From: an uncultured Coprobacillus sp.
GTDB taxonomy: Bacteria; Bacillota_I; Bacilli_A; ML615J-28; CAG-698
Direction: 5' to 3'
DNA length: 64,000 nucleotides
Assembly: GCA_964389905.1 (NCBI GenBank)
Contig: CAYMGD010000001.1
Location: 47,334-111,333 of the forward strand
The translations under genes and the position numbers were made by a program. Position 1 is the stretch's first letter. Each line of letters opens with the position of its first letter. Of the stretch, positions 2,279-27,195 are shown in pieces. The notes below the pieces were generated by a model. That model did not search any database. It was not told the origin of the DNA and was given only the letters and a program-made list of their open reading frames with translations.

Positions 2279-2307
2279 TAACACAATATTATGAAAAGGA
2301 TAGAATT

Positions 2308-3408
2308 ATGAAGAAAAATTCAAATAATAATTCTGTATATGAAAAAATTATAACAGCACTTAAAAGCCGAAAAGAAAAACTGATTGAATGGGATAAAGCA
2401 GCAGATAATTTTGCAAATACAGGAAGAATTGCAAAAGAAAACACTATTGAAAAGTTTATTAATAATGAAGTTAAAGCTGCAGAATATATAAATAGATTAT
2501 TAAACACAATAGGGCTAAAAAATATTCAAATTAATAAAGATGAAGTCAAAGAAAGTATAACTGATAGATATTCACATACTTTATTTACCTTTTTATTAGG
2601 ACTTTTAATATGTAAATTTAATAATTTAGAGGAAAAAATAGAAAACCATTATAAGAAGTATTTTGATAATCAAGAAGATGTTTTTCTTAAAGTATGGATT
2701 TTTACAGCAATATTTCATGATATTGGGTATGTTTATATTAGAAAGAATAATGCAAGAGGAATAACGAAGTTATCAGAAATAAATGCAAATAATAATATAT
2801 TTGATTATAAAGAAGGTAATGAAAAAACTCGTTATTCGCAAGATTTATTTGAAAATTATTTTAGTGCATATGCAAAATCAAAAACACTAGAAACAGAATA
2901 TTTGGAACATGGAATAACTGGTGGCTATGTTTTATTTAATAAGTTATTAGAAAGTAAAATAAAGTTGGAAGGTGTAAAAGAAAATTATCTTTACCAAAAT
3001 ATTTGCTATAGAATTATGGAACATAATATATGGAAAATAACTGATGATGCATTCTTTAAAGACTTCAATAAGCAGTTATTTAGAGAAATATCAGAAGATA
3101 ACTTTACAAAAATAGATGATAGCGAACCTTTGCTTTTTCTCCTAGCGTTATGTGATTCAATAGAACATGTAAAAAGGCTTTGGACAGCGAATAAAAACAA
3201 TGGTGAGAGAAATACACGGGTGCTAACTTTCGCAAAGAAAATAGAAATAGATGTAACTGAAGAATCAATAATTATAAGTTACAATAATGTGAAAGATGCT
3301 TTAGGCTTTGAAAGATGGAAAAGTGGCATAGAAGGATTAAGTGCTTGGCTTAATGTTAAATATAAAGATGAAAATAACCAGTGGGAGATAACTATTGATA
3401 AGAAGTAA
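2308..3408 (+). CDS. HD-domain-like hypothetical protein, paralog A (H..HD..H..H..D pattern)
   Basis: 366 aa. Motifs SHTLFTF, IFHDIGY, LEHGITGG, IMEHNIW, LCDSIEH. Clear paralog of 15511..16650 (shared HTLFTF-LG-LL-CKF, FLKVW, IFHD-GY, YLEHG-GGYVLF, YQNICYRIMEHNIWKITDD, EPLLFLL-LCD-IEHVK). Confidence 0.45.
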   Translation: MKKNSNNNSVYEKIITALKSRKEKLIEWDKAADNFANTGRIAKENTIEKFINNEVKAAEYINRLLNTIGLKNIQINKDEVKESITDRYSHTLFTFLLGLLICKFNNLEEKIENHYKKYFDNQEDVFLKVWIFTAIFHDIGYVYIRKNNARGITKLSEINANNNIFDYKEGNEKTRYSQDLFENYFSAYAKSKTLETEYLEHGITGGYVLFNKLLESKIKLEGVKENYLYQNICYRIMEHNIWKITDDAFFKDFNKQLFREISEDNFTKIDDSEPLLFLLALCDSIEHVKRLWTANKNNGERNTRVLTFAKKIEIDVTEESIIISYNNVKDALGFERWKSGIEGLSAWLNVKYKDENNQWEITIDKK

Positions 3409-3543
3409 TTTCATAAACATAAGATTATTTTAAATGTCTTATGTTTTTTTTATTGTTAACTGAAAATGTAGTTCAATTAATCTAGGCGTTTTCTAGGGAT
3501 AAAAGGGTAAAAACACAAATGAATATGGGATTCTGGGTAAATC

Positions 3544-3648
3544 TTAGGCACTTTTAGAAACAACAAGTGTTGCTCCCAGAAATATGCCATAAAGAACTGC
3601 AATAAGTCCTGTGTGACAGCGAAAAAGTTGATTTATATGTTTATTCAT
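3544..3648 (-). CDS. Possible small hydrophobic peptide (34 aa, one TM helix), unannotated
   Basis: Minus-strand ATG with a GGGGAAAC RBS. MNKHINQLFRCHTGLIAVLYGIFLGATLVVSKSA. Lies in the 470-nt intergenic region between the HD-like and SIR2-like genes. Confidence 0.2.
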   Translation of the reverse strand: MNKHINQLFRCHTGLIAVLYGIFLGATLVVSKSA

Positions 3649-3843
3649 TTAAGTTTCCCCATTTTTTATTAATATTATTTTTTTATATATTTTGTTAAGG
3701 TTATTACTTTAAAATATGATTAGAGCTATATATTTAATGTTCAAATTTAGTGAATAATTCATGAAATTTGCAATTTGAAACATCGATTTTCAATAAAAAT
3801 AGAACTTATAAAAAATTTGGGGAAACTCAAAGTTTATTCATCG

Positions 3844-3871
3844 TTGACAAATGAGGGGGGGGGTATAAAAT
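3844..3871 (+). promoter_or_regulatory. Promoter with a G9 homopolymer in the -35/-10 spacer (candidate phase-variable promoter)
   Basis: TTGACA (3844-3849), then a spacer containing GGGGGGGGG (3855-3863), then TATAAAAT/TATAAT, then ATG at 3881. Confidence 0.5.
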
Positions 3872-3880
3872 ATAATATAT

Positions 3881-5203
3881 ATGAAGGGGAAAAATACGTA
3901 TAATAAAATGGAAGAACAGAAGCATAATAAAATAACATTTATATTTGGAGCAGGTGCTGAAGGAAAGGATTATGGTTTATCTTGTGGGAATGAATTTAAA
4001 AAGAATATATTACTGTGTGAAAATGTTTTGCAAATTTATAAGTTAATTAATAATGAAGATAGATTAATTCCATTAAAAAATGGGTTATTGATAAGGCATA
4101 ATTCAAGTAGTACTTTATATCAAACTCTAAAAGAAAATGAATCTACTTTTACTGATAAATTTTCAGGTAAAACAAAAAGAATTATTAATAACTATTTTAA
4201 TTACAAAATTGGCAAATGCAATAAAGAAGAAAAAAAGATATATCCAAAAGAATTTCACAATTTGTTTAAAACGGAAATATATAATAAGTTAAAAAATAGT
4301 AACAAAACTTCATATAGTAAAATACTTGATTTTTATCTAAATAATTTGTCATTTTGTTCGTTTGTAGATTCTTTATTCAATTATTTAAGGGATACAAATA
4401 ATTACCCTAAAGAATGTGCTAGAGTAATAAAACTATATTATTCTGCTTTTGTCTCCATTATTTCATGTTTAGATGAAAACTTTTTGGCAAATACTGAAAA
4501 AATATGTGCTGACAAGGATATAATGACAAATAGAAAAATAATAATTGAAGAAATTGATGAATATATTGAAAAAAGAAAAGAAAAAGTTGAAAAGGAACAT
4601 AAAGAAAATGGTTCGGCTGAAGAAAAACAAAAACCATATTATGAAATATTAAAAGAGAAAATTAGTGAAAACAAACAAAACTTTCCAATAAGAGTAATAA
4701 CAACAAATTATACATCTATTTGTCAGAAAGTATTAGGCCTAGATGATAATTACATTGCATACGTACATGGTAAATTGAATTTATTTGAAAACTTAAAAAC
4801 TAAAGAAATAAAAGATATAAGGGAATTTAATAAAGATGATATTATTTTCCCCTATATGATGGTACAAAGTGGTGTTAAACCTGTTATTTCTCCTTACCAA
4901 ATAAAAGAATGGCACAAAGCAATAGAATTTTTAGAAAATAGTGAGTATATATTTGTATTAGGATATAGTTTTAAATCTGATGACGAACACTTTCAAACAA
5001 TAATAAGAGATAGCATCAATAATAAAATAATGGTATTTTTCTTATATGTTGAAGAAAAGAATAATGATACTCAAAAAACAAAAAATGAACTAGAAAGTAA
5101 GTTTAAATCAAAAGCAAAGAATATTTACTTTTTTAATACAAAAGAATTTGAAGAAATAATAAAAAAAGTAATTAATAATGAAAAATTAATTTCATCAATA
5201 TAA
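3881..5203 (+). CDS. SIR2-like (SIR2_2/DHS-like NAD-binding) domain protein A
   Basis: 440 aa, no signal peptide. Motifs FIFGAGAEGKDYGL, ITTNYTSI, YVHGKLN, VLGYSFKSDDEHF match the four SIR2_2 signature blocks (GAGxS, TTNYD, HG, GYSxxD). Putative catalytic N and H are present. Confidence 0.55.
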   Translation: MKGKNTYNKMEEQKHNKITFIFGAGAEGKDYGLSCGNEFKKNILLCENVLQIYKLINNEDRLIPLKNGLLIRHNSSSTLYQTLKENESTFTDKFSGKTKRIINNYFNYKIGKCNKEEKKIYPKEFHNLFKTEIYNKLKNSNKTSYSKILDFYLNNLSFCSFVDSLFNYLRDTNNYPKECARVIKLYYSAFVSIISCLDENFLANTEKICADKDIMTNRKIIIEEIDEYIEKRKEKVEKEHKENGSAEEKQKPYYEILKEKISENKQNFPIRVITTNYTSICQKVLGLDDNYIAYVHGKLNLFENLKTKEIKDIREFNKDDIIFPYMMVQSGVKPVISPYQIKEWHKAIEFLENSEYIFVLGYSFKSDDEHFQTIIRDSINNKIMVFFLYVEEKNNDTQKTKNELESKFKSKAKNIYFFNTKEFEEIIKKVINNEKLISSI

Positions 5204-5219
5204 ACAACAGGAGGACAAA

Positions 5220-7955
5220 ATGAAAACAAAGAAATTAATAATTGTTTTATTATTTGTATTGTTATTAGGAATAGGTTGTAACCAAAATAATAATGAAGGT
5301 AGCAAATGTAAGCATGAAATTGAAAGCGTTGCAAAACAAGATGCAACGTGTACAAAAGAAGGTAATCAAGAATATTATCATTGCACTAAATGCAATAAAT
5401 ATTATACTGACAAAGAATTAACTAATGAAAAAACATATGAAGAGTTAGTTATACAAAAAACAAAACATACTGAATCCGATTGGATTATTGATAATAATGC
5501 ATCTTGTACTGAAAAAGGACTAAAACATAAGGAATGTACAGTTTGCAAAGAAAAACTTCAAGAGGAATCGATAGATATTATTAAGCATAACTATACTGAA
5601 ATTATTATTGCACCTACTTGTGATACGCAAGGATATACTCTTTATACATGTAGTTGTGGCGATGAATATAAAGATAATTATGTTGATGCTATAGGACATA
5701 ATTATAGTGATTGGGAAATACTTAATGAAGCAACTGAAAAAGAAACAGGCTTAAAGATGAGGAAATGCTTAGTTTGTAATAAACAAGAAACAGAGATTAT
5801 ACCAATGGTTAGTCATATACATAATTATACCGAAAGCACTATTGCACCAACTTGTGATACGCAAGGGTACACATTACATACATGTGCTTGCGGGGATAAT
5901 TATAAAGATAATTATTTGAGTGCAATGGGGCACACATATAATGATGAAGGTAAAATAATACTTTTAGAAAATGATAAGAAAGCTGTAACAAGATATACTT
6001 GTGATAAATGCTCATATTTCAAAGATGAAGTATACTCTGGATACTATTTACAAAGTAATGGTTTGTTTTACTTTGATTATTTTGGGAATAGAATTGATTT
6101 GAATGAAATATTTGTTGAAGTTAATGGTAATACATATTATGTAATCAACAATATAATTGTAAAAAATTATTATATGATTGATGGGACAATATATAATTTT
6201 GGTAGTGATGGTATAAAACAAGATACAATTCTTACAAACAAAATCATAACATACGGAAATGATAAATATTATGTCATTAATAATGTAATACAAAAGAATA
6301 CGTACGAAGTATATGAACAAAATATTTATTACTTTGATGAAAATGGAAAAGCTATAAAAAATACTTCATATGAAGGCTATACTTTTGGTGTGAGTGGATA
6401 TTTATTAGGAAATGATATATTAATTAAAATTAATAATGTATTATACTATGTAGTTAACAATTCAGCAAGTGTTCATAATCATACAATAGAAAATAGTCAA
6501 TATAAAGCAGCAACTTGCACAGAAAATGGTAATTATGAATATTATCACTGTACAGAATGCAATAGATATTATTCAGATAGTAATTATATGAAGGAAATTA
6601 ATGCTGATGAAATTGTTATAAAAGCAAAACATAAAGTTACAAAATATGAAAGAAAAGAAAATACTTGCGTTGATAATGGAAACATAGAGTATTTCCACTG
6701 TACAAAATGTAATAAGTATTATCAAGATAGTTCTTGTACAAAGCAAATAGAATACGAAGATACTATTATAAAAGCATCACATAATATTACTAAATATGAA
6801 GGTAAAGAATCAACTTGTACTGAACAAGGATATAAAGCATATGAAAAATGTGCAAACTGTTCATATACAACATTTGAGTCTCTTCCATTAAAAGAGCATA
6901 CACTAACTGATTGGATAATAGATACAGAAGCAACTTGCACACAAACAGGAAGTAAACATAAAGAATGTAGTGCTTGTATGAAGATAATTGAAACAGAAAC
7001 AATTGCTGCTTTAGGGCATAATTATGTCAGTAATGTATGTACAAACTGTGAAAAAATGAAAGTAGAAATTAAAGATGGATATATTTATTTTGGTGAGTAT
7101 CCTCAAACACTAAAAGAAAAAACTGTGAAAATAACAAGCACTGAACCAGATGCTGATGGCTACTATTTAGGAAGTGATGGTGAAAGATATGCTAGGGTTA
7201 CTGCTAAACCTTATAAAAATACATATTACTTTAATGACAAAGTAACTAGTATTATTGATGGTGTAACATATTACTTCAAAGTAGAACCAATTAAATGGAA
7301 AATTGAAGAAGAAGGTAGTGGCCCATATAAACTAATAAGTGATCTAATTATAGATTGCCAAATGTATTATTCATCATTAGATAACAGAACAATAGATGGA
7401 CAAACAATATACGCTAATAACTATAAATATTCTGATATAAGAAGTTGGTTAAATAATGAATTTATAAACAAAGCATTTACTGAAGACCTTCAAGAATACA
7501 TAAATACGATAGGCGTATATAATGGGGCATCATCAATGGGGGCTTCAAGTGATAAATTTGCATGTGAGAATACATATGATAAAGTGTATTTACCAAGTTA
7601 TCAAGAAATGGTAAATGTGAATTATGGCTATAGTAAAAGTGTTTCTGACTCTGATTCAGCAAGACGAAAACAAGTAACAGATTATGCTAAAGCAATGGGT
7701 TGTTATATGAATACTGGAAGTACATATTATAATAATGGTTATTATTGGCTTCGTTCACCTATTATTTATAAAGGTACAACTTATTATAATAAAGATTATA
7801 GTTCATGTAGTTATTGTGCATATAGTATAGATTATTATGGAGATATTGCTAATGGTGTATATTCTACATCGGAAGGAATTTTTTATTTTCAAAATCACGA
7901 AGTAAATAAAGAATATCGTGGTGTTGCCCCCGCTTTAACAATCCAAATCTACTAA
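5220..7955 (+). CDS. Cys-rich repeat surface lipoprotein A with a C-terminal C-type-lectin-fold (DUF1566/FGE-like) domain. Carries a degenerate VR-like 3' end.
   Basis: 911 aa. Signal peptide plus lipobox LLLGIGCN. Repeated CxxxGxxEYYHCTKCNKYY and HNYTE-I-APTC-GYT-H-C-CGD-YKD-Y modules. C-terminus YIYFGEYPQTLKE...DYAKAMG...YYWLRS...GVAPALTIQIY is paralogous to the DGR target 9319..13683. RBS AGGAGG 8 nt upstream. Sits 17 nt after the SIR2-like gene. Confidence 0.6.
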   Translation: MKTKKLIIVLLFVLLLGIGCNQNNNEGSKCKHEIESVAKQDATCTKEGNQEYYHCTKCNKYYTDKELTNEKTYEELVIQKTKHTESDWIIDNNASCTEKGLKHKECTVCKEKLQEESIDIIKHNYTEIIIAPTCDTQGYTLYTCSCGDEYKDNYVDAIGHNYSDWEILNEATEKETGLKMRKCLVCNKQETEIIPMVSHIHNYTESTIAPTCDTQGYTLHTCACGDNYKDNYLSAMGHTYNDEGKIILLENDKKAVTRYTCDKCSYFKDEVYSGYYLQSNGLFYFDYFGNRIDLNEIFVEVNGNTYYVINNIIVKNYYMIDGTIYNFGSDGIKQDTILTNKIITYGNDKYYVINNVIQKNTYEVYEQNIYYFDENGKAIKNTSYEGYTFGVSGYLLGNDILIKINNVLYYVVNNSASVHNHTIENSQYKAATCTENGNYEYYHCTECNRYYSDSNYMKEINADEIVIKAKHKVTKYERKENTCVDNGNIEYFHCTKCNKYYQDSSCTKQIEYEDTIIKASHNITKYEGKESTCTEQGYKAYEKCANCSYTTFESLPLKEHTLTDWIIDTEATCTQTGSKHKECSACMKIIETETIAALGHNYVSNVCTNCEKMKVEIKDGYIYFGEYPQTLKEKTVKITSTEPDADGYYLGSDGERYARVTAKPYKNTYYFNDKVTSIIDGVTYYFKVEPIKWKIEEEGSGPYKLISDLIIDCQMYYSSLDNRTIDGQTIYANNYKYSDIRSWLNNEFINKAFTEDLQEYINTIGVYNGASSMGASSDKFACENTYDKVYLPSYQEMVNVNYGYSKSVSDSDSARRKQVTDYAKAMGCYMNTGSTYYNNGYYWLRSPIIYKGTTYYNKDYSSCSYCAYSIDYYGDIANGVYSTSEGIFYFQNHEVNKEYRGVAPALTIQIY

Positions 7956-8081
7956 AAGGAGCCTAATCATAAATTTAGGTAAAATACTAAAAAATGGAAT
8001 AAGATTAATTAGAAGAACATAAATCACAAAATTTTATTAAGTATTATAAAAAGAAAAAATTACATTAAGGAGTAATATTAT

Positions 8082-9287
8082 ATGAAAAATGCCTTTTTCT
8101 TTGGAGCAGGTGCGGAAGATATCTATGGTTTACCACTAGGTGGTGAATATGTGTTAGATACTATGATGACAAAAAAGCCAAAATTATATGATGAATTAGA
8201 AAAGTTTTACGAAGGTTCAAAAATAGAATATCAAAAGGAATTTCTATTTTCTTCAAATAGTAACACGTTTGCAAATATTTTATTGGATGCATATAAGACT
8301 TTTATAAATGAAAAAGATTATAAAAAAGATGAAAACTGTTTAATAGAAAAGATATTTAAAGATGTTGATTTTAAGTATGATGAATCTAAAAAAAAGGAAG
8401 ATATTCTAAAGAAAATAAAAGATAATTTAAGTCAAGAAAAAGATAAAGAACAATTGTTTGATATCATAATTAACAGAAAATATAATGATTCAGAATTGGA
8501 CAAGTTTTTTAAAAAATTAAAATATTATGGAACAATAGAAAAAGATTTTTCTTGCTTGCTTGATTATAATGCATATATAAAAAGAGCCTCAAGACTAATT
8601 AATTATTTTTGGAGCTGTTATTTTTCTATTTTTATACCATATCTAAAAGCATATTATGGAGAAGAAAAATTTTATAAAGAACTTTTTAATAAAGAAAATG
8701 GTAAATATAAATTTTTAAAAATTATAGAAGAATTAAAAAAAGCAAATATAAGTGATTTTAAAACAAAAAATAATGAAAAAAGTTATTACCAAGTCATAGC
8801 TGAAAAGTATACAGATAATACTTTTGCCATTACAACAAATTACACTTTCTTTGTTGAAAAAGCTTTTAAAAATAATATTTATTTAGCAGGCAAATTAGAC
8901 GAATTTGAGGAAATTGATACATTTATGGTTTCAAATGAATTGAGCAATAATTCTATTCCATTTTTATATACACAAGCTCCAATTAAACCAATTATTGCAT
9001 ATAAAACTATTGAAAAGTATTATAATGCGATGAATGAGATGAAAAATGCTAATAATATTTTTGTTATTGGGTATGGCTTTTGTAACGAGGATTCACACAT
9101 AAAAACGTTATTTTTAGAACTTAGACAACAAAATAAAAACTTAAACATAATTTATTGTGATTATGGAAGTAATGTGGAAAAAAATAGTAAATTTGAAGAG
9201 TATTTAAAAAAATTAAATGCCAAAATTGAATCATACAGTAATTGTGAAGAACTAATGAAAATAATTGATAAATATCAAATAAATTAA
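8082..9287 (+). CDS. SIR2-like (SIR2_2) domain protein B
   Basis: 401 aa. Motifs FFFGAGAEDIYGL, ITTNYTFF, VIGYGFCNEDSH. The HG position reads YLAGKL, so the conserved His appears to be replaced. Confidence 0.5.
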   Translation: MKNAFFFGAGAEDIYGLPLGGEYVLDTMMTKKPKLYDELEKFYEGSKIEYQKEFLFSSNSNTFANILLDAYKTFINEKDYKKDENCLIEKIFKDVDFKYDESKKKEDILKKIKDNLSQEKDKEQLFDIIINRKYNDSELDKFFKKLKYYGTIEKDFSCLLDYNAYIKRASRLINYFWSCYFSIFIPYLKAYYGEEKFYKELFNKENGKYKFLKIIEELKKANISDFKTKNNEKSYYQVIAEKYTDNTFAITTNYTFFVEKAFKNNIYLAGKLDEFEEIDTFMVSNELSNNSIPFLYTQAPIKPIIAYKTIEKYYNAMNEMKNANNIFVIGYGFCNEDSHIKTLFLELRQQNKNLNIIYCDYGSNVEKNSKFEEYLKKLNAKIESYSNCEELMKIIDKYQIN

Positions 9288-9318
9288 TATGAATTATAAG
9301 TAAATAACAGGAGGAAAA

Positions 9319-12300
9319 ATGAAAACAAGAAAACTATTGATATTTGTATTATTCATATTACTACTAGGAATAGGATGTAATAATACAAGAGAATGTGAGC
9401 ATACTATTGAAAATATTAAAGCACAAGAAGCAACTTGCATAAAGGAAGGTAATATTGAGTATTATTATTGTACTAAATGTAATAAGTATTACACTGATGA
9501 AAAATTAACTACTGAGGTAAAGCATGAAGACTTAGTGTTACAAAAAACAAGCCATACAGAATCAGATTGGATAATAGATACTGAAGCAACTTGTAGTAAT
9601 CAAGGGTTAAAACATAAAGAATGTACAGTATGTAAAGAAAAGTTACAAGAAGAAGTAATAGGAGAAACAGAACATAGTTACACTGAAACTATAATCAATC
9701 CAACATGTGAGAAAGAAGGTTATACTCTTCATAAATGTTTATGTGGCGATGAATATAAAGATACTTATGTTGAAGCCTTAGGACATACTGAAGAAATCAT
9801 TTCAGGAATTGATGCAACATGTACAGAAAGTGGCCTAACAGAAGGAAAGAAGTGTTCAGTTTGTGGAGAAATATTAGTAAAACAAGAAGTAATCAAAGCT
9901 AAAGGACATAATCATACAGAAACAGTTATAGCACCAACTTGTACAAAGCAAGGTTATACAATTCATACTTGCCACTGTGGAGATAGCTATAAAGATACTT
10001 ATGTAGATGCTTTAGGACATACTGAAGAAATCATTTCAGGATTAGATGCAACATGTACAGAAAGTGGGCTAACAGAAGGAAAGAAATGTTCAGTTTGTGG
10101 AGAAATATTAGTTAACCAAGAAGTAATAAAAGCAAAAGGTCATAATCATACAGAAACAGTTATAGCACCAACTTGTACAGAAGATGGCTATACAATTCAT
10201 AAATGCCACTGTGGAGATGAATATAAAGATACTTATGTAAATGCTTTAGGACATACAGAAGAAATCATTTCAGGATTAGAAGCAACATGTACAGAAAATG
10301 GTCTAACAGAAGGAAAGAAATGCTCAGCTTGTGGAGAAATATTAGTTAAACAAGAAGTAATAAAAATAAAAGAACATAACTATGGTGATTGGATAATAGT
10401 TAAGCCTGCAACTGAACAAGAAACAGGTTTAAAAACAAGAAAATGTCTTGACTGTGAGAAAGAAGAAACAGTAGAAATCCCAACGCTAGATCATATTCAT
10501 TCTTATGATGAAACAGTTATAGCACCAACATGTACAGAAGATGGCTATACAATTCATAAATGCCACTGTGGAGATGAGTATAAAGATACTTATGTAAATG
10601 CTTTAGGACATACAGAAGAAATTATTTCAGGATTAGAAGCAACATGTACAGAAAGTGGACTAACAGAAGGAAAGAAATGTTCAGTCTGTGGAGAAATACT
10701 AGTAAAACAAGAAGTAATCAAAGCTAAAGGACATAATCATAGTACAAGTAATATAGTGCTCTTAGATGAAGGCAATAAAGCAGTAACAAGATATTATTGC
10801 TCTAATTGTACTAGTTATAAAGATGAAATATATTCAGGATATTATTTACTAAATGATATTGCTTATGAATTTGATAATTCAGGTAATAGAATTAATTTAA
10901 ATGAATCATTTATAGAAGTAAATGGAAACACATATTATATAATTAATAATACTATTATAAAGAATTATTATATAATAGATGGAACAATCTATGACTTTGG
11001 TAGTGATGGAATAAAACAAGAAACTGTTCTAACAGATACAATTATTACATTTGAAGATAATTTATATTATGTTATTAATAACATAATCCAAAAAGAAGTA
11101 TTTATAGTTTATGAACAATGTATATATTTCTTTGATGAAACTGGTAAAGCATTAGTAAATACAACATATAATGGATATACATTTAATGCAAATGGATATT
11201 TAATAGGTAATGATATATTAATAGAAATTAACAAAGTATTATATTATGTTGTTAATAATATTGCATCAGTACATAATCATAGTTTAGAACACAAACTATA
11301 TAATCCTGCAACTTGTACAGCTGATGGTAATATAGAATATTTCTACTGCACAATATGTAATAGATTATATAAAGATAATGAATGTATTAATGAAATAACT
11401 AATGAAGATATTATTATAAAAGCATCACATAATATTACTAAATATGAAGGTAAAGAATCAACTTGTACTGAACAAGGATATAAAGCATATGAAAAATGTG
11501 CAAATTGTTCTTATACGACATTTACATATCTTCCATTAAAAGAACATACACTAACAGACTGGATAATAGATACTGAAGCAACATGTACACAAACAGGAAG
11601 TAAACATAAAGAATGTAGTGTTTGTGAGAATATTCTTGAAACAGAAACAATTGAAGTTTTTAATCATAACTATGAAAATGGAAAATGTACTATTTGTGGG
11701 AAAACACAAAACGCTTCTACAGAAAGTAAAATATGGCAAGATAATGGTTACGTTTATTTTGGAGAATATCCTCAAACACTAAAAGAAGAAAGTATAACAA
11801 TTGTTAGCGATACACCAAATAGTGATGGATATTATTTAGGTAGTGATGGTGAAAGATACGCAAAAGTTACTGCAAAACCATATAGTAGTTCATATTATTT
11901 TAATGGCAATGCATCAAAAATAGTAAAAGGAACAACATACTATTTCAAAGTAGAACCAATTAGATGGAAGATTGAAGAACAAAGTAATGACACATATAAA
12001 CTAATATGCGATTTAGTTATTGATTGTCAAATGTATTACTCATCTAAAAATGAAAGAACAATAGATGGACAAACAATATATGCTAATAATTATAAATATT
12101 CTGATATAAGAAGTTGGTTAAATAATGAATTCTTAAACAAAACATTTACTGAAGATCTTCAAGAATATATAAATGTAACAGAAGTTGATAATAGTGCTTT
12201 ATCAACTGGGTATTCAGAAAATGAATATGTTTGCGAAAACACAATGGATAAAATATATTTACCAAGTTACGAAGAAATGTGTAAATATGCATATGGTTAT

Positions 12301-13683
12301 AGTACTGATTCATTAGAAAAAGATTATGCAAGGCAAAAACAACTAACAGATTATGCCAAAGCAATGGGATGTAGTATGAATACAACTGATGACTATTACA
12401 ATAGTGGCAGCTATTGGCTTCGTTCATCAACAAACTATATAGGTACATATGTACGTGGAGTAAGCACAGATGGTTATGTATTTAATGATTATATTAATCA
12501 TAGTGGCGTTGGTGTTATTCCTTCAATGTCAATAACAAAAGATAATATTCCTTTTATGCATAATATAGTAAAGTGCGAAGGAAAAGAATCTACATGTACA
12601 GAATATGGATACGAACCATACGAAAAATGTATTGATTGTTCATATACAACATTTACATATCTTCCATTAAAAGAGCATACATTAACAGACTGGATAATCG
12701 ATTCACAAGCAACTTGTATGCAAACTGGAAGTAAACATAAAGAATGTACAGTATGTGAAAATGTTGTTGAGACGGAAACAATAGAAGCAATTGGTCATAA
12801 TTATATTAATAATATATGCACAAAATGCAATATTAAAAGGATTGAAGTTGGCGATAAAGAAATCTTAATAGGTACAGGTTATATCTATTTTGGCGAATAT
12901 CCTCAAACACTAAAAGAAGAAAGTGTAACAATTGTTAGTGATGCACCAGATAGTGATGGCTATTATCTAGGTAGTGATGGCGAAAGATATGCGAAAGTTA
13001 CTGCAAAACCATATCCTTATCCTTATAGTTCATATTACTTTAATGATAAAACAACAAAAATAGTAAAAGGAACAACATACTATTTCAAAGTTGAACCAAT
13101 TAGATGGAAAATTGAGGCACAAACCAATAGTACATATAAACTAATAAGTGATTTAATTATTGATTGTCAAAAATATCATTCATCAACATCAACAAGAACA
13201 ATAGATGGAAAAACAATATGTGCTAATAATTATGAATATTCTGATATAAGAAATTGGTTAAATAATGAATTCTTAAACAAAGCATTCCAAGAAGTTCTTC
13301 AAGAATATATAAATGTAACAGAAGTAGATAATAGTGCTTCATCAACTGAGTATTCAGAAAATAAATATGCTTGTGAAAATACAATGGATAAAATATATTT
13401 ACCAAGCCGTGCAGAAATGCTAAAAGCAGAATATGACTATAGAACAAGTTCTGGAGAAGATACAGCAAGACAAAAGCAACTAACAGATTATGCTAAAGCA
13501 ATGGGATGTTTTATGAATACAACTGATGATTACTACAATAACGGTTATTATTGGCTTCGCTCGCCTTTCAGCGACGACTCGGACGGCGCGTACTTCGTTC
13601 ACTACTATGGCAATGTGCGCAACTACTACGTCTACGACGTCAGCATTGGCGTCGCCCCCGCTTTAACAATCCAAATCGACTAA
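9319..13683 (+). CDS. DGR target protein. Cys-rich repeat surface lipoprotein B with two C-type-lectin-fold domains; the C-terminal one carries the variable repeat.
   Basis: 1454 aa. Lipoprotein signal LLLGIGCN. Internal 78-aa tandem repeats. Two copies of the YxYFGEYPQTLKE...YYWLRS module. The last 110 nt of the coding sequence match the TR apart from adenine positions. Confidence 0.8.
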   Translation: MKTRKLLIFVLFILLLGIGCNNTRECEHTIENIKAQEATCIKEGNIEYYYCTKCNKYYTDEKLTTEVKHEDLVLQKTSHTESDWIIDTEATCSNQGLKHKECTVCKEKLQEEVIGETEHSYTETIINPTCEKEGYTLHKCLCGDEYKDTYVEALGHTEEIISGIDATCTESGLTEGKKCSVCGEILVKQEVIKAKGHNHTETVIAPTCTKQGYTIHTCHCGDSYKDTYVDALGHTEEIISGLDATCTESGLTEGKKCSVCGEILVNQEVIKAKGHNHTETVIAPTCTEDGYTIHKCHCGDEYKDTYVNALGHTEEIISGLEATCTENGLTEGKKCSACGEILVKQEVIKIKEHNYGDWIIVKPATEQETGLKTRKCLDCEKEETVEIPTLDHIHSYDETVIAPTCTEDGYTIHKCHCGDEYKDTYVNALGHTEEIISGLEATCTESGLTEGKKCSVCGEILVKQEVIKAKGHNHSTSNIVLLDEGNKAVTRYYCSNCTSYKDEIYSGYYLLNDIAYEFDNSGNRINLNESFIEVNGNTYYIINNTIIKNYYIIDGTIYDFGSDGIKQETVLTDTIITFEDNLYYVINNIIQKEVFIVYEQCIYFFDETGKALVNTTYNGYTFNANGYLIGNDILIEINKVLYYVVNNIASVHNHSLEHKLYNPATCTADGNIEYFYCTICNRLYKDNECINEITNEDIIIKASHNITKYEGKESTCTEQGYKAYEKCANCSYTTFTYLPLKEHTLTDWIIDTEATCTQTGSKHKECSVCENILETETIEVFNHNYENGKCTICGKTQNASTESKIWQDNGYVYFGEYPQTLKEESITIVSDTPNSDGYYLGSDGERYAKVTAKPYSSSYYFNGNASKIVKGTTYYFKVEPIRWKIEEQSNDTYKLICDLVIDCQMYYSSKNERTIDGQTIYANNYKYSDIRSWLNNEFLNKTFTEDLQEYINVTEVDNSALSTGYSENEYVCENTMDKIYLPSYEEMCKYAYGYSTDSLEKDYARQKQLTDYAKAMGCSMNTTDDYYNSGSYWLRSSTNYIGTYVRGVSTDGYVFNDYINHSGVGVIPSMSITKDNIPFMHNIVKCEGKESTCTEYGYEPYEKCIDCSYTTFTYLPLKEHTLTDWIIDSQATCMQTGSKHKECTVCENVVETETIEAIGHNYINNICTKCNIKRIEVGDKEILIGTGYIYFGEYPQTLKEESVTIVSDAPDSDGYYLGSDGERYAKVTAKPYPYPYSSYYFNDKTTKIVKGTTYYFKVEPIRWKIEAQTNSTYKLISDLIIDCQKYHSSTSTRTIDGKTICANNYEYSDIRNWLNNEFLNKAFQEVLQEYINVTEVDNSASSTEYSENKYACENTMDKIYLPSRAEMLKAEYDYRTSSGEDTARQKQLTDYAKAMGCFMNTTDDYYNNGYYWLRSPFSDDSDGAYFVHYYGNVRNYYVYDVSIGVAPALTIQID
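9781..10740 (+). repeat. Near-identical 234-bp (78-aa) tandem coding repeats (3 contiguous units plus a 4th after a ~120-bp insert)
   Basis: Units begin GGACATAC(T/A)GAAGAAATCATTTCAGG at 9781, 10015, 10249 and 10605, about 90-95% identical at DNA level (GHTEEIISG-DATCTESGLTEGKKCSVCGEILVKQEVIKAKGHNHTETVIAPTCT-GYTIH-CHCGD-YKDTYV-ALG). Confidence 0.8.
13549..13660 (+). repeat. DGR variable repeat (VR), in frame at the 3' end of 9319..13683
   Basis: 112 nt align to the TR at 14201..14312. There are about 21 mismatches; all but one lie where the TR has A (TR AAC codons vs VR TTC/AGC/GAC/GGC/CAC/TAC/CGC). Confidence 0.85.
13641..13680 (+). promoter_or_regulatory. IMH-like element (GC-rich ATTGGCGTCGCCCCCG core plus VR-specific CTTTAACAATCCAAATC)
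   Basis: The 14-nt GC-rich core is shared with the TR 3' end. The flanking 3' sequence differs (TR: ATTTATCTTAC), as expected for IMH vs IMH*. Confidence 0.6.
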
Positions 13684-13701
13684 AAGGAGATAAATCAATG
13701 G

Positions 13702-13745
13702 GGTTGGCCTCTCTAATCTTAAGCTTTAGCTTAGAGAGGCCAACC
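13702..13745 (+). repeat. Perfect 15-bp inverted repeat (hairpin/cruciform) 18 nt downstream of the VR stop
   Basis: GGTTGGCCTCTCTAA - 14 nt loop - TTAGAGAGGCCAACC. No T-run follows, so it is not a typical terminator. Matches the position of the hairpin that assists DGR retrohoming. Confidence 0.7.
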
Positions 13746-13762
13746 AGAAAAATTTAGAAAAA

Positions 13763-14146
13763 ATGCCAAAAATAAGAAAAGAAACAGAATTAAGAGTTAT
13801 AACAAGTACTAAAAAATTAGTTGATTATGTATTAACAGTAACAGAAAAAAGTCCTAAAAAGTATAGATACACTTTTGTAGAGAGAATTCATACTATATTA
13901 TTTGATTTAGTTGAATGTCTTTATAGAGCTAATATTGAAAAATTAGGAAATCCTAAAAGACAAGAATATCAAAAAGATGCATTAGTATGCTTACAGTTAC
14001 TAGATTATTTTTGTGATATTGCAGTTGATGAGAAATGTTTAATATTTAGACAATATGAAAACATATCAGAAATGATTTGTACAACAACTAATTTATTAAA
14101 TAGTTGGATATTAAGTGATTTAAGAAGAATCAATGAAAAGAAATAA
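13763..14146 (+). CDS. avd: DGR accessory variability determinant (Avd-like four-helix-bundle protein)
   Basis: 127 aa, basic and predicted helical. Sits between the VR and TR as in canonical DGR cassettes. Confidence 0.65.
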   Translation: MPKIRKETELRVITSTKKLVDYVLTVTEKSPKKYRYTFVERIHTILFDLVECLYRANIEKLGNPKRQEYQKDALVCLQLLDYFCDIAVDEKCLIFRQYENISEMICTTTNLLNSWILSDLRRINEKK

Positions 14147-14200
14147 TAATAATAATAATAATTATTATTATGGGGATAAGGTTGTAAAACTAGTGGAGGG

Positions 14201-14312
14201 TATTGGCTTCGCTCGCCTAACAACAACAACTCGAACAACGCGTACAACGTGAACAACAATGGCAATGTGAACAACAACAACGTCAACAACGACAACATTG
14301 GCGTCGCCCCCG
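14201..14312 (+). repeat. DGR template repeat (TR), AAC-codon rich
   Basis: TATTGGCTTCGCTCGCCT then AAC AAC AAC AAC TCG AAC AAC GCG TAC AAC GTG AAC AAC AAT ... ATTGGCGTCGCCCCCG. Non-coding, between avd and the RT. Confidence 0.85.
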
Positions 14313-14513
14313 ATTTATCTTACTAGTAGATGAAATAATCTATGGATTTACAGAATAATATTTTAGGTAAAATATTACAGTTTTAAGATAAAGGAACTTT
14401 ATTCCCTGTTATTAAATAACTAAATATAACCACTTGTACTAGTGACTTCATTAATGAATTTACTAGTTGAGCATAATGAATGTCAAGTGGTTTTCTTTTT
14501 TAAAGGAAGACTT

Positions 14514-15521
14514 ATGAAAACATATGATGAAGTATTCACATTTAGAAATCTATACAAAGCTCATAAAAAGGCAAGACTTTCCAAAAGAAACAAAAAAGAA
14601 GTCATTGAATTTGAGTTAGATGTTGGTAATAATATTTGGAAGCTAAAAAAGGAACTTAATAATCGAACTTACAAAGTGAAAGATTATCATCACTTTATGA
14701 TATACGAACCAAAGAAACGAAAAATAGAAGCATTATCATATAGTGATAGAGTACTTCAACACTGTATTGTTGATGAGTATTTGATGGAAATATTAGAAAG
14801 ACATCTAATATATGATAATGGTGCTTGTAGGAAGGGAAAAGGAACAGATTTCTGCAGAAAAAGAGTTAAATCCTTTCTTACTTCCTTCTACAAACAACAT
14901 AACATAAATGGCTACGTTTTACAGTTTGATATTCATCATTACTTCGAATCAATTAAACATAATATCCTAAAAGAAAAGATTAAGAAAATTGTTAAAGAAA
15001 AAGAAATCTTAAGTTTATTGAATGCAATAATAGATTCATATTCAGATTATGAAAATTCTGGTTTACCAATAGGAAATCAAACAAGCCAATGTTTTGCATT
15101 ATATTATTTAGATGGAATAGATCGCCTCATCAAAGGAAAATATCAAATGAAGTATTATTCAAGATATATGGATGATGGCATTATCATATGTGAAAGTAAA
15201 GATAAAGTAAGAAGTTTATTAAATGATATTACTAAAGAATGTGAAATAATAGGACTAAAACTTAATGAAACTAAAACAAGAATATATAAGTTAAAAGAAG
15301 GATTTACGTATTTAGGTTTTAGATATATGATTTTATCTAATGGCAAAATACTAATGAAAATACCCAAAGCTAAAAAACAAAGAATAAAAAGATATTTAAA
15401 AACATTAGATGATACAAAAGATAGAATAGTTTTCTATAAAGATTATTTATTAAAAGGTAATAATTATATGTTTTATCAAACAATTAGAAATAATACAAAA
15501 AGGAAGAAATATGGAAACTAA
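14514..15521 (+). CDS. DGR reverse transcriptase
   Basis: RT motifs including YMDDGII (motif C) and the DGR-typical IGNQTSQ motif. RBS AAAGGAAG before the ATG at 14514; the six-frame ORF extends back to 14442. Confidence 0.8.
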   Translation: MKTYDEVFTFRNLYKAHKKARLSKRNKKEVIEFELDVGNNIWKLKKELNNRTYKVKDYHHFMIYEPKKRKIEALSYSDRVLQHCIVDEYLMEILERHLIYDNGACRKGKGTDFCRKRVKSFLTSFYKQHNINGYVLQFDIHHYFESIKHNILKEKIKKIVKEKEILSLLNAIIDSYSDYENSGLPIGNQTSQCFALYYLDGIDRLIKGKYQMKYYSRYMDDGIIICESKDKVRSLLNDITKECEIIGLKLNETKTRIYKLKEGFTYLGFRYMILSNGKILMKIPKAKKQRIKRYLKTLDDTKDRIVFYKDYLLKGNNYMFYQTIRNNTKRKKYGN

Positions 15522-16650
15522 TAAACTAAATAATTCATTATTTGATAGAATAAAAGAAGTTCTTGAAGATAGAAAAATAATTAATAATAACGATTATAAT
15601 AATGTTAAAGGATTTGTTAATAAAGAAGATAAAACTGCGGGTTATATTAAAGAATTATTTAAAAGTGTTGGGCTAGAAAGTAAAATCATTAGTAAAAATT
15701 ATATAAAAAATAGTTTATCTAATAAAATTACTCACACTTTATTCACGTTCTTTTTGGGACTATTAGTATGTAAATTCGATGATTTAGAAACTAAAATAGA
15801 AAAAGAATATGAAAAATATTTTAAGGAAAAAGACAATATATTTCTAAAAGTATGGACAATAACTTCCATCTTTCATGATTATGGATATGCATATATCACA
15901 AAAAATAAAGACAAATTGCAAGGAATAGAAGAATTGTCAAAAATAAAGGTTGATAATAATATATTTGAATATGAGTATGAAAATGAGGAAATACGTTATT
16001 CAAGAAACTTGTTAGAAGCATATTTTAGTGAATTTGCAAAGAAAAAGAAAAAAGCAACAGACGAAAAAGATAAAGAGGAGTATTTAGAACACGGAACTAT
16101 AGGTGGATATGTACTGTTTGATGAAATGATAAAGAATAAAATGAAGTTTAATGATGTTGATGATAATTATTTATATCAAAATATCTGTTATCGAATAATG
16201 GAACATAACATATGGAAAATAACAGATGATAATAAATTCTTTGATGAATTTGATAAAGAAAAAGTTCAAGAAGTTTATAAAAATAATTTTAAAATAATTT
16301 ATGATAATGAACCTTTATTATTTTTATTATCATTATGTGATACGATAGAACATGTAAAAAAACTACACACAAAAAATAAAAAAGGTAAAACCGCTAATAC
16401 ACGTGTAACAACTTTTGCAAAGAAAATAGGATTTGAAGTTACTAGTGATAGTATATCTATAAATTATATAGATGTGAAAAAGGAAGTAGAAACGGGAATA
16501 AAAAAAAGGAAAGCAGAACAAAAAGAAGATGATCCAGAACCGGAAAATGAATTCGAGAAATGGAAAAGTGGTATTATAGGATTAAATGGATGGGTTAACG
16601 TTGATATCGATGATAGTGATGAAAAATGGACAATATCGAAAAAATCATAA
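15511..16650 (+). CDS. HD-domain-like hypothetical protein, paralog B. Overlaps the RT stop by 11 nt.
   Basis: 379 aa, paralog of 2308..3408 with the same H/HD/H/H/D motif pattern. The ATGGAAACTAA start overlaps the RT TAA, which argues for translational coupling to the DGR RT. Confidence 0.45.
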   Translation: METNKLNNSLFDRIKEVLEDRKIINNNDYNNVKGFVNKEDKTAGYIKELFKSVGLESKIISKNYIKNSLSNKITHTLFTFFLGLLVCKFDDLETKIEKEYEKYFKEKDNIFLKVWTITSIFHDYGYAYITKNKDKLQGIEELSKIKVDNNIFEYEYENEEIRYSRNLLEAYFSEFAKKKKKATDEKDKEEYLEHGTIGGYVLFDEMIKNKMKFNDVDDNYLYQNICYRIMEHNIWKITDDNKFFDEFDKEKVQEVYKNNFKIIYDNEPLLFLLSLCDTIEHVKKLHTKNKKGKTANTRVTTFAKKIGFEVTSDSISINYIDVKKEVETGIKKRKAEQKEDDPEPENEFEKWKSGIIGLNGWVNVDIDDSDEKWTISKKS

Positions 16651-16735
16651 TCAGAATATCTATACTACAGTATTTATAACTAAAATATAAAATACAATAA
16701 ATAATTAATATGCAATGCATTATACGAGGAAAATT

Positions 16736-17809
16736 ATGAACACTAATGAAAATACTGAAAAAATAAAGTTTTTTAGAGGAGAGTCTAAAGAATATGAACA
16801 ACCGTGTACACCAACGCTTTTTAGATTCTTGAATGGATGTAATAATTTACTATTACTTGAGAAGGCTTATTATGAACTTTCTATGAATCATATAAATATG
16901 TTTAATTTTACATCAAAAAAAGATGAACTATTGAAGTATATATATAATGTATGCTTTATGCAACATTATGGCTTTGGTACTAGGCTACTTGATATCACTG
17001 AAACAAAAGATGTAGCATATTATTTCGCTAGTTGTTCAAATTTTGATCGAGATGGATATGTTTATTCATTTGAGGTAAGTGAGGATATGAAGTTTTTTAA
17101 GAGTGCTGAAGCAGAAACAGTAAGAAGAAAGTTCTTATGTATTAAAAATATAAGTACAGAAAATAAATGCATTATCAATCTCATTGAGAATGAGACAGAT
17201 AATGTCATTCGTTATAATACTATAACTAACAATGCAATATTAAAGTATGAAAGTTTATTTGATATTTTGCCAGAAAATATAAGATATCAAAGACAAAATG
17301 GAGCATTCATTGTCCCAGGCAACAGATTAGAAGGTGATAACATTAGTGATGAACATAATGTTATAATGGGGAAAAAAGAAAATCTAGTTAAAAGCATTGA
17401 TAAAATAGATGAGTTATATAAACTATGTTTCGAAAATGATAAACATATAAATCACGTATATTTATTTCCAGATGACGATAATAGTTTATACCTTTGTTCT
17501 AGATATAATCTATTTATAAATAGTTACTATAATCAAAAAAGTAATTTATTTAAAAATATTTACACTAAGTTTTACCTAGATAATGATGAAAGTAAATATC
17601 CTAAAGAGCATTTTGAAAACAATTCAGTTTTATTTGAAGAATTAACCAATGAATATGCATTTTATTTTTTCTTTATTGAAATGAAAGATTGTTTATTCTA
17701 TATATTAGAAGATGCAACTAAAATTAATAAGTTTTTCAAAGAAAATAAAGAAAAAACTATCAAAGAACTAATTGAACAAGCAAAAAAACTTATAAGAGGA
17801 AAATTATGA
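16736..17809 (+). CDS. FRG-domain protein
   Basis: N-terminal FFRGESKEYEQPCTPTLFR and QHYGFGTRLLDITETKDVAYYFA match the FRG-domain consensus (FRGq ... QHYGLPTRLLDWT ... AlyFA). RBS GAGGAAA before the ATG at 16736; an alternative ATG lies at 16715. Confidence 0.5.
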   Translation: MNTNENTEKIKFFRGESKEYEQPCTPTLFRFLNGCNNLLLLEKAYYELSMNHINMFNFTSKKDELLKYIYNVCFMQHYGFGTRLLDITETKDVAYYFASCSNFDRDGYVYSFEVSEDMKFFKSAEAETVRRKFLCIKNISTENKCIINLIENETDNVIRYNTITNNAILKYESLFDILPENIRYQRQNGAFIVPGNRLEGDNISDEHNVIMGKKENLVKSIDKIDELYKLCFENDKHINHVYLFPDDDNSLYLCSRYNLFINSYYNQKSNLFKNIYTKFYLDNDESKYPKEHFENNSVLFEELTNEYAFYFFFIEMKDCLFYILEDATKINKFFKENKEKTIKELIEQAKKLIRGKL

Positions 17810-18180
17810 ACTATAAAAAATTAATATTAATAAGTATTATTTGTATTATTACTAGGAATAGGTTGTAACAAAGATAATACATATAAACATGAAATTGAAT
17901 GCATTGCTAGCAAACAAGCAACTTGTACAAAAGAAGGTAACATTGAATATTTTCACTGTTTAAAGTGCGATAAATATTATAGTGATAAAGAATTTACTAA
18001 AGAAAAAAACTCTTAAAGAATTAGTTATTTAAAAGACAAATTATATTGAGTCTGATTGGATAATTGATAAAAACCCTTCATATTGAGACAAGGAAAGTAA
18101 ACATAAAGAATGCACTGAGTGTGGCATAGTAACTACAACAGAAATAATAGAAGCTAAAAATATTAAATATGCTTTTAAAG
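17810..18180 (+). pseudogene. Decayed third paralog of the Cys-rich lipoprotein family (frameshift in the signal peptide, premature stop, deletions)
   Basis: MNYKKLILISIICII then a frameshift. The +1 frame gives LLLGIGCNKDNTYKHEIECIASKQATCTKEGNIEYFHCLKCDKYYSDKEF then a stop. Further remnants SDWIIDKN...GSKHKECTECG lie downstream in other frames. Starts 1 nt after the FRG gene stop. Confidence 0.7.
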
Positions 18181-18486
18181 AAGCATCTATTCCTTCAAAA
18201 GGATTACTATTTTGATTTTCACCATAAACTTTATATAAAAACCTAATCTTAAAAGTTGCCTTATGTAAGGCATCTTTTACTTTGGAAAACAACTGTGAAA
18301 ACTTTTTAAAGGATTGTTTATGGACTAAAAAATATCATAATGACTTTTTACTTAATTTTGTTTAGGTGAATCCTTTTATACGTGTATAATTATTATACAA
18401 AATTTAGGTATAAAGATATATAAAAATTGTATATTAATATATATAAAATCGTCTTGATAATAGTAGGCATTTGTAGTATAATTTAT

Positions 18487-18512: not shown

Positions 18513-18537
18513 ATATAACATCATAAAAGGAGAAATT

Positions 18538-27193: not shown

Positions 27194-27195
27194 AT

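Follow-up and report, generated by a model that had tools for sequence, protein, structure and literature searches.

Diversity-generating retroelements (DGRs) are, to our knowledge, the only bacterial system for targeted protein hypermutation. Canonical cellular DGRs act on surface lipoproteins with a C-type-lectin (CLec) fold, such as TvpA of Treponema denticola and LdtA of Legionella; targets of the DUF6273 type, which we take to be a CLec-type fold, occur in DGRs of gut Firmicutes and of phages. Here we analyze a locus (positions 2308–18180) in 64 kb of DNA (27% GC) from a contig of an uncultured Coprobacillus sp.; this whole 64-kb stretch is called the window. The locus holds a DGR, three paralogous lipoprotein genes (lipoA, lipoB and the remnant lipoC), and genes for SIR2-like (A and B), FRG-domain and HD-like (A and B) proteins. 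Judged from gene neighbourhoods, the SIR2-like family recurs, across phyla, beside genes for CLec or other surface proteins. We read the locus, with a probability of roughly 0.45, as a conflict or signalling module based on NAD or ADP-ribose (ADPr) and linked to a surface receptor that the DGR diversifies.

As in canonical DGRs, the Avd gene, the template repeat (TR) and the reverse transcriptase (RT) gene follow the target, the 3′ variable repeat (VR) lies in a CLec-type domain, substitutions are adenine-specific, the 3′ end of the VR is GC-rich, and the target carries a lipoprotein signal. The locus departs from that pattern in having SIR2-like, FRG and HD-like genes interleaved with paralogs of the target, an RT gene that overlaps an HD-like gene, and target paralogs in three states (active, with a decayed VR, and pseudogene).

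Thoeris consists of a TIR sensor, ThsB, and a SIR2-SLOG effector, ThsA. Its NAD-based logic has a counterpart in three relatives of the locus (contigs of relatives are given L-numbers) in which TIR and SIR2-fold genes co-occur (L005, L021 and L042). Unlike in Thoeris, no TIR is encoded in the window, SLOG is missing from the SIR2-like proteins, and the relatives carry their TIR within a membrane protein that has a large ectodomain. The SIR2-HerA (Nezha) system supplies the only profile match of the SIR2-like proteins in the PDB, at 13–16% identity, but neither HerA nor any other ATPase is encoded in 2308–18180. AbiH is a stand-alone gene, whereas the SIR2-like gene has a conserved surface-protein neighbour. 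Finally, the HD-like proteins share the helical HD/phosphodiesterase (PDE) fold and the six-ligand H..HD..H..H..D pattern of dinuclear HD enzymes (Ppx/GppA C-terminal domain, class I cyclic-nucleotide PDEs, PgpH, YqeK, HD-GYP, Cas3-HD), yet they do not belong to these groups at the sequence level and have an extra C-terminal alpha/beta region.

DGR-diversified CLec domains have been described as putative sensors of conflict systems, namely the MoxR-vWA ternary and STAND systems (Kaur et al. 2020/2021, PMC7159879, PMC8195603; Dore et al. 2024, PMC10907252). There, too, hypervariable CLec domains are linked, in the genome or physically, to effectors (TIR and trypsin among them), loci undergo duplication and decay, and some targets have a predicted extracytoplasmic location. 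The general concept of DGR-varied lectin domains on conflict effectors is therefore already published; what differs here is the architecture and the hosts. The window encodes no MoxR, vWA or STAND NTPase, its partner proteins being SIR2-like, FRG and members of a new HD family; only in L006–L010 are HD-like and TIR proteins accompanied by AAA ATPase and trypsin genes. The relatives encode single-pass proteins with a cytoplasmic Zn-ribbon-TPR-TIR part, a transmembrane (TM) helix and an extracellular part made of Flg_new or LRR repeats and CLec. The hosts are low-GC gut-type Firmicutes and a spirochaete, as opposed to multicellular cyanobacteria, proteobacteria and actinobacteria. In the literature that we searched, nothing linked a DGR with a SIR2, FRG or HD accessory gene, in agreement with what had been supposed from the sequence.

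SIR2-like genes recur beside surface-protein genes

Loci of the SIR2-like family were fetched independently of any lectin query. In 11 of ~16 distinct loci, including the window and L005 and spanning at least two phyla, the SIR2-like gene lies directly beside a gene for a secreted or ectodomain protein. The two genes are on the same strand, and their spacing ranges from a 10-nt overlap (L025) to 176 nt. A CLec gene is found within 5 kb in 5 of 13 independently fetched loci; by a rough estimate, which assumes at most a few DUF6273 genes per genome, this would arise by chance with a probability of ~1e-6.

The neighbours vary in kind. SIR2-like genes adjoin a DUF6273 protein in L023, a 1,273-residue DUF6273 lipoprotein in a Treponemataceae metagenome-assembled genome (L046), LRR_5 surface proteins in L024 and L025, and lipoproteins in L027 and L033. 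Secreted CLec proteins of the FGE-sulfatase type lie on both sides of the gene in L030/31. TIR-TM-DUF6273 genes flank it on both sides in L021, where several TIR genes accompany one SIR2-like gene, and a TIR-DUF6273 protein is encoded 4 kb away in L042–44. The neighbourhood in L022 is cut by the contig end. Thus, the SIR2-like/surface-protein pair, which is at operon spacing, is not peculiar to this strain but recurs in many unrelated contigs. In such neighbourhoods a stand-alone HD/PDE-fold phosphohydrolase is often encoded as well.

One relative, L005 (a 41-kb contig of a sporeformer), combines this pair with a DGR. Its gene order is split SIR2-like, DGR target, avd, RT, HD-like and full-length SIR2-like. 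Compared to the window, avd is 68%, RT 75% and HD-like 36% identical, and the full-length SIR2-like protein is 41.5% identical to SIR2-like A. The target (4545–8180) has 1,211 residues and is not a lipoprotein. Its VR (8039–8157) differs from the TR (8672–8790) at 19 positions, all of them TR adenines. The protein begins with a Zn-ribbon, TPR and TIR_2, continues with one helix (residues 654–672) that follows KQKQKR, and ends with Flg_new repeats and DUF6273. The domain order and the single helix imply that a cytoplasmic TIR is joined to a hypervariable extracellular lectin domain. This topology resembles that of a Toll-like receptor, and the Glu motif of the TIR, W.KNEW, is conserved.

Proteins that run from Zn-ribbon-TPR-TIR through one TM helix to Flg_new or LRR repeats and DUF6273 were found in L005, L021 and L009. 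No TM segment was detected in the TIR-DUF6273 protein of L042, and the apparent TIR of L019, a hidden Markov model (HMM) match, covered only the N-terminal Zn-ribbon and was discarded. Stand-alone proteins with a similar Zn-ribbon start adjoin SIR2-like or HD-like genes in L026 (1931–3115), L022 (7195–8376) and L019 (10419–11381).

These comparisons favour one of the options raised by the sequence-only reading, a modular sensor/effector system, since the same lectin domain is, in relatives, fused to TIR across a membrane helix. SIR2, FRG/ADP-ribosyltransferase (ART) and TIR are unrelated NAD-using folds found at the same place, which we infer to be non-homologous replacement in a single role. 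Another of those options, chance co-localisation, is unlikely for SIR2-like and lipoprotein genes given their recurrent adjacency, but possible for FRG, which is paired with a lipoprotein only here, and with a pseudogene.

Several genes at these loci are split into two open reading frames (ORFs): SIR2-like in L005 (3333–4512) and L031 (1940–3202), and TIR-DUF6273 in L021 (4612–7144). Together with lipoC, these cases indicate that decay is frequent. Contigs also tend to end nearby, either ∼0.1–1.4 kb past SIR2-like or within avd upstream of TR and RT (3′ ends of L021, L022, L025, L030 and L046; 5′ ends of L035 and L038). Such breaks are expected where repeats or hypervariable DNA adjoin, so public assemblies under-report these neighbourhoods. 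A scan of IMG/VR viral contigs with HD-like, SIR2-like and RT found no relatives, and hence no sign that the genes are phage-borne. Plasmid searches with tblastn returned nothing for HD-like and two short, weak matches for SIR2-like.

The SIR2-like and FRG proteins

SIR2-like A and B are 26% identical (E 4e-18), and B matches the family HMM at E 2e-86. The sequence-only reading had assigned both to SIR2_2. The SIR2 part of that assignment stands, as the proteins have a SIR2 Rossmann-type fold, but neither Pfam SIR2 nor SIR2_2 matches them, and Pfam, NCBIfam, PADLOC and PHROG together gave nothing above threshold. Their only Pfam match is AbiH, at 24 bits (cut-off 30.9), and PADLOC SIR2 matches are weak (E 1e-3 to 2e-4; ∼2e-4 for B). 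About 40 clusters of this AbiH-like family were found. The modelled structure consists of a SIR2 core and a helical insertion only, and Pfam detected no signal-binding domain (SLOG, Macro or similar).

An alignment of 27 sequences showed GAGAE, TTNYT (N267), HG (H287) and GY..DDEH to be conserved in the family and in SIR2-like A; their match to catalytic residues is judged from the motifs. SIR2-like B differs at around residue 268, where YLAGK replaces Y.HGK and alanine stands in place of the histidine present in 26/26 other aligned members. Loss of this HG-motif histidine suggests that SIR2-like B, whose gene directly precedes the live DGR target, is probably catalytically inactive.

For the FRG protein, the earlier assignment was borne out. 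Pfam FRG (PF08867) matches residues 19–111 at 8.1e-12 (46.3 bits, cut-off 25), and the PADLOC defence candidate PDC-S15 matches at 1.3e-19. Iyer et al. (2022, PMC9503650) assign FRG to the ADP-ribosyltransferase superfamily and predict for it an NADase-type role as an antiviral effector. None of the five partner proteins (SIR2-like, FRG and HD-like) has a signal peptide or hydrophobic segment.

The DGR and its lipoprotein family

In the alignment of TR and VR, 74/75 non-A positions are identical and 22/42 A positions are changed. Hence 22/23 differences fall at TR adenines, the lone exception being G14251>T. In lipoB, the VR spans the final 45 codons, within DUF6273, in accord with the earlier proposal that lipoB is the DGR target. 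No second VR-like site was found in the window. Avd is recognized by Pfam bAvd (2.2e-11, 44.7 bits, cut-off 40), by the PHROG 'Avd protein of DGR' (4.5e-19) and, below cut-off, by NCBIfam DivGenRetAVD (1.4e-13, 51 bits, cut-off 80). The RT matches Pfam RVT_1 (3.9e-22), and its translation contains IGNQTSQ and YMDD. It is 69–76% identical to RTs of other DGRs with DUF6273 and Avd, and its nearest relatives lie in Avd + DUF6273 cassettes. With an adenine-specific TR/VR pair, an adjoining RT, Avd and a VR at the C-terminus of the target, the DGR is canonical and looks active.

LipoA and lipoB are 52–62% identical, and each begins with a signal peptide and the lipobox LLLGIGC. Pfam DUF6273 matches lipoA at 8e-21 and lipoB, over two stretches, at 4.7e-40. 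LipoB also contains four tandem Cys-rich units of 234 nt (78 residues) that are 80–90% identical (9672–10743). Related units are present in lipoA, and no Pfam family covers them.

The sequence-only reading had described the three paralogs as a DGR-diversifiable family. The three paralogs are real, and one is a live target. The C-terminus of lipoA (7733–7950) keeps a TR-like 5′ anchor, TATTGGCTTCGTTCACCTA, and a GC-rich 3′ end resembling an initiation of mutagenic homing (IMH) site, whereas the VR interior is diverged and longer, with insertions. This end is a decayed or dormant VR that might still accept cDNA of the TR. The internal DUF6273 of lipoB keeps the 5′ anchor only. Both regions were considered as extra live targets and rejected, as neither gave a match of VR grade. 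LipoC is frameshifted after ∼17 codons and has more stops, and homology is lost near 18200; past the frameshift, it is 64% identical to residues 17–71 of lipoA, and DNA repeat families D5, D12, D13 and D19 match. The anchors and decay seen in the three genes point to one live target, one decayed target and one pseudogene.

HD-like proteins and their junction with the RT

HD-like A and B are 47% identical (E 3e-114). HD-like A matches the family HMM at E 1e-82 and, in alignments A2/A4, shows the invariant H..HD..H..H..D pattern. Residues H75, H122-D123, H194, H232 and D277 are invariant across 60 members that are 19–45% identical to HD-like B, and the proteins have the helical HD/PDE fold. Yet neither A nor B matches any profile of Pfam (including HD, PF01966), NCBIfam, PADLOC or PHROG. 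Pfam HD matches 1/60 sampled members, weakly (E 6e-4). The HD label given from the sequence thus stands on the metal-ligand pattern and the fold, while Pfam HD fails to match the window proteins. We conclude that HD-like is an uncurated branch of the HD superfamily. The family had at first looked rare, with 17 clusters from a word-indexed search; an exhaustive profile search returned 1,314, nearly all stand-alone proteins of 340–400 residues.

Members of the family occur in varied settings. They follow TIR-TM-LRR/Flg_new giants, with AAA ATPase and trypsin genes, in L006–L010, a DUF6273 membrane protein in L019 and SLH surface proteins in L017 and L020, and they lie in recombinase, Schlafen or HEPN contexts in L001 and L018. 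Two of these loci (L006, 183–11252; L009, 581–13073) encode, in order, an AAA ATPase, TPR-TIR (with or without TM and a giant LRR_5/Flg_new ectodomain), HD-like, a second AAA ATPase, in some cases a UvrD-like protein, and a trypsin-like protease. This cluster, which has the HD-like family in common with the window, may be a multi-gene conflict system that is so far undescribed. Genes of the metallo-beta-lactamase fold adjoin HD-like in two unrelated contigs (L011, 4625–5728; L016, 3499–4374).

The overlap of the RT and HD-like genes by 11 nt was found in the window and in L005 only. The two junctions are homologous, showing one shared origin and a coupling inherited within a single lineage. 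Instead, an ABC transporter, a Big_2 metallophosphatase and RsgI/sigma genes lie downstream of the closest three RTs, which are 76, 70 and 69% identical, and no HD-like or SIR2-like gene is present there. Since the overlap is seen in a single other locus and is missing after the three nearest RTs, HD-like is not a general DGR accessory.

In a rival reading, HD-like B might be a new DGR accessory factor, translated with the RT and acting on the cDNA/RNA intermediate or on dNTP pools, as a nuclease or SAMHD1-like dNTPase that modulates mutagenic retrohoming. HD-fold relatives include nucleases (Cas3-HD, YhaM) and dNTPases (SAMHD1, dGTPase), the junction is conserved in two loci even though the HD-like proteins there are only 36% identical, and we found no such partner described in the literature searched. 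But a shared junction reflects one ancestral event rather than repeated recruitment, and HD-like is missing downstream of the three nearest RTs at 69–76% identity. HD-like A, in the same window, adjoins no RT, and of the ∼1,300 clusters of the family, most members examined are far from any RT or Avd. We therefore regard an accessory role as highly improbable. The idea, put forward in the sequence-only reading, of a DGR with a new accessory HD protein is disfavoured, as the gene is absent after the nearest RTs and most of this large family is found without DGRs.

Gene order and a G tract in the putative promoter of SIR2-like A

All focal genes are on the + strand (Table 1), and the ORF map and alignments agree with the gene order, paralogies, 31-nt gap and 11-nt RT/HD-like overlap reported earlier. 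The gap between SIR2-like A and lipoA, given before as 17 nt, measures 16 nt and includes an AGGAGG ribosome-binding site (RBS), cAGGAGGacaaaATG. The 31-nt gap between SIR2-like B and lipoB likewise has an AGGAGG RBS, cAGGAGGaaaaATG, and HD-like B, which starts inside the RT gene, has its own AGGAAG RBS, aaAGGAAGaaatATG. The remnant of lipoC does begin at the FRG stop, but its ATG overlaps that stop (as ATGA) rather than merely abutting it. For the RT, ATG 14514 is more likely to be the start than 14442, and it fits the deposited 335-aa protein. Contrary to the earlier reading, the HD-like paralogs do not strictly bracket the array, since FRG and lipoC come after HD-like B. The array is better read as two triplets of HD-like, NAD-type enzyme and lipoprotein, with SIR2-like B, lipoB and the DGR between them.

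Table 1. Features of the locus (positions in the window)
Feature	Position	Strand	Description
HD-like A	2308–3408	+	Stand-alone phosphohydrolase (HD/PDE fold) from an uncharacterised family; opens the island
Promoter-like site with G9 in spacer	3844–3876	+	TTGACA-16-TAAAAT
SIR2-like A	3881–5203	+	Cytoplasmic SIR2-fold protein with GAGAE, TTNYT, HG and GY..DDEH motifs
lipoA	5220–7955	+	Surface lipoprotein with Cys-rich repeats and C-terminal DUF6273; decayed VR
SIR2-like B	8082–9287	+	Divergent paralog without the near-invariant His of the family
lipoB	9319–13683	+	1454-aa surface lipoprotein with Cys-rich repeats and two DUF6273; the C-terminal DUF6273 is the DGR target
VR	13549–13665	+	3′ end of lipoB
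avd	13763–14146	+	Accessory variability determinant of the DGR (Pfam bAvd, PHROG)
TR	14201–14317	+	Between avd and RT
DGR reverse transcriptase	14442–15521	+	Pfam RVT_1; probable start ATG 14514
HD-like B	15511–16650	+	Overlaps the RT stop by 11 nt; own RBS
FRG-domain protein	16715–17809	+	ART superfamily; Pfam FRG, PADLOC PDC-S15
lipoC remnant	17806–18200	+	Frameshifted, truncated third lipoprotein paralog
Terminator-like hairpin	18257–18272	+	First on the + strand past the array

The best + strand promoter match in the locus precedes SIR2-like A. Its spacer, between perfect TTGACA and TAAAAT/TATAAT boxes, contains a tract of nine guanines (G9; 3855–3863) 18 nt ahead of the SIR2-like A start. 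This is the sole G/C run of ≥7 in the 64 kb, in which ∼0.03 G8 runs are expected. In this AT-rich DNA the promoter scan as a whole did not exceed chance (128 sites versus 135 expected), and it was used only to point at the G9 site. The tract looks like a candidate slipped-strand phase-variation switch for the SIR2-like A/lipoA pair. On the + strand, two terminator-like sites were found in 2000–18600 (18257–18272 and 18563–18581), of which the first is the only one before the next gene at 18427; as the number of sites is not above chance, the terminator evidence is weak. An Rfam scan of the whole window found no RNA family.

Another explanation is that the NAD-type enzymes work for the surface proteins instead of in defence. 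They could alter or control these proteins through ADP-ribosylation or deacylation of the precursor or of its export or expression machinery, or they might be host-directed NADase effectors released with adhesins, a role that has been proposed for some bacterial TIR proteins. Operon-like spacing and strong RBSs would fit this, and a G9 tract in a promoter is also a feature of phase-variable surface-antigen operons. The partners are of adhesin type (LRR_5/BspA, Big_2, CWB2, Flg_new and CLec), and SirTM-type sirtuins, which ADP-ribosylate proteins, are among the structural matches. A host-directed role has a precedent in TIR proteins of E. faecium, which are reported to be released and to promote survival in blood (PMC6304867). 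Yet the best structural matches of the SIR2-like proteins are antiphage NADases, SIR2-like, FRG and HD-like have no signal peptide, and no macrodomain or other reader or eraser of such modifications is present. In the fused relatives, moreover, the TIR is on the side of the cytoplasm, next to KQKQKR before the helix, which suits signalling more than secretion. Overall, service to the surface proteins seems to us improbable.

Island context

The locus forms the left part of a ∼26-kb island between housekeeping genes, with Fe-hydrogenase, GNAT and Fe repressor genes on the left and FeoB (30488) on the right. Immediately after lipoC, 18427–22962 encodes a 1,511-residue protein that has membrane helices at both its N- and C-terminus as well as two PLAT/LH2 domains (Pfam 4.7e-30), a domain unusual in bacteria. 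The interval 23266–28176 contains one truncated and one full gene for a YhcG/DUF1016 PDDEXK nuclease, an AbiEi_2-type gene and IS21 remnants (a Mu-transposase C-terminal fragment and IstB).

Such an island could have brought unrelated genes together. The DGR and lipoproteins would then serve ordinary surface variation, for adhesion or ligand binding as with TvpA or LdtA, and the SIR2-like, FRG and HD-like genes would be stand-alone defence genes piling up in a hypervariable region. In line with this, AbiEi_2, YhcG and IS21 remnants are present, FRG matches a stand-alone defence candidate (PDC-S15), and the SIR2-like proteins come close to AbiH, an abortive-infection family of single genes. The nearest DGR relatives have no such partners downstream, the lipoproteins have no membrane-spanning link to the cytoplasm, and HD-like is found in many other contexts. 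Independent accumulation does not readily account for a SIR2-like gene beside a secreted or CLec gene on the same strand in 11 of ~16 loci from at least two phyla, nor for CLec genes within 5 kb in 5 of 13 loci, with the roughly estimated chance given above. Nor does it account for three unrelated NAD-using folds in the same position, one of them fused to the lectin protein. We thus find independent co-localisation unlikely, though it merits serious consideration.

A proposed receptor-linked NAD module

In the module that we favour, the surface protein would be the receptor arm and the NAD-cleaving enzyme the output arm, with an anti-phage/abortive-infection or signalling role. The DGR apparently copies the TR, through adenine-error-prone cDNA, into the 3′ end of lipoB, thus hypermutating the ligand-binding face of its C-terminal DUF6273, and would in this way supply receptor diversity. 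In the fused relatives, a ligand outside the cell would cluster the cytoplasmic TIR and so start NAD+ cleavage or ADPr-type signalling. The SIR2-like protein would deplete NAD+, and HD-like would be either a second effector or the enzyme that hydrolyses a nucleotide product.

Several observations weigh against this module. The lectin proteins of the window are lipid-anchored outside the cell, separate from the enzymes, and the window encodes no transmembrane transducer and no TIR (the latter by Pfam, tblastn and a TIR-module HMM), so no path from receptor to enzyme is evident. The SIR2-like protein encoded before the only active target is the one without the near-invariant histidine. No recognisable sensing domain such as SLOG is present in the SIR2-like proteins, and HerA, with which their nearest structural relatives work, is absent. 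FRG is paired with a lipoprotein in this locus only, and with a pseudogene; the three nearest DGR RTs have no HD-like or SIR2-like gene downstream, and many HD-like loci have no surface-protein partner. SIR2-like itself is without such a partner in L032 and L045, and the neighbourhood counts, taken from ~16 SIR2-like and ~13 loci of which several are truncated, are not genome-wide statistics.

A more far-reaching version would unite the window with the fused relatives as outside-in receptors, akin to Toll-like receptors but with an adaptive tip, in gut Firmicutes and spirochaetes. A lectin/LRR ectodomain, hypermutated by a DGR in some cases, would control NAD+ cleavage through a fused TIR or an upstream SIR2-like or FRG protein, and an HD-family phosphodiesterase would process the product; the window would represent a split, lipoprotein version that is phase-variable. 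We offer this version as speculation and think it rather unlikely to hold in full. In the parts of a 2025 systematic TIR survey reached by keyword search, no transmembrane TIR receptor with an ectodomain appeared.

The idea that bacteria use DGRs for their own immune sensing, as opposed to adhesion or phage tropism, has so far rested on NTPase-linked cytoplasmic sensors in multicellular bacteria. The locus and its relatives present a new configuration, in gut-type anaerobes, in which hypervariable extracellular lectin domains are tied to SIR2-like, FRG/ART and TIR, and in one relative (L005) a proven DGR target is built, in its topology, like a Toll-like receptor. Two uncharacterised families, an AbiH-like SIR2 family (∼40 clusters) and an HD family (∼1,300 clusters), can now be named. 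If the link between them and the surface proteins is not functional, the locus is still a clear case of a DGR in a defence or contingency island. If it is functional, it would show that bacteria can control NAD-based immunity or signalling by what they sense at their surface, and the gene pair would offer an experimentally tractable case.

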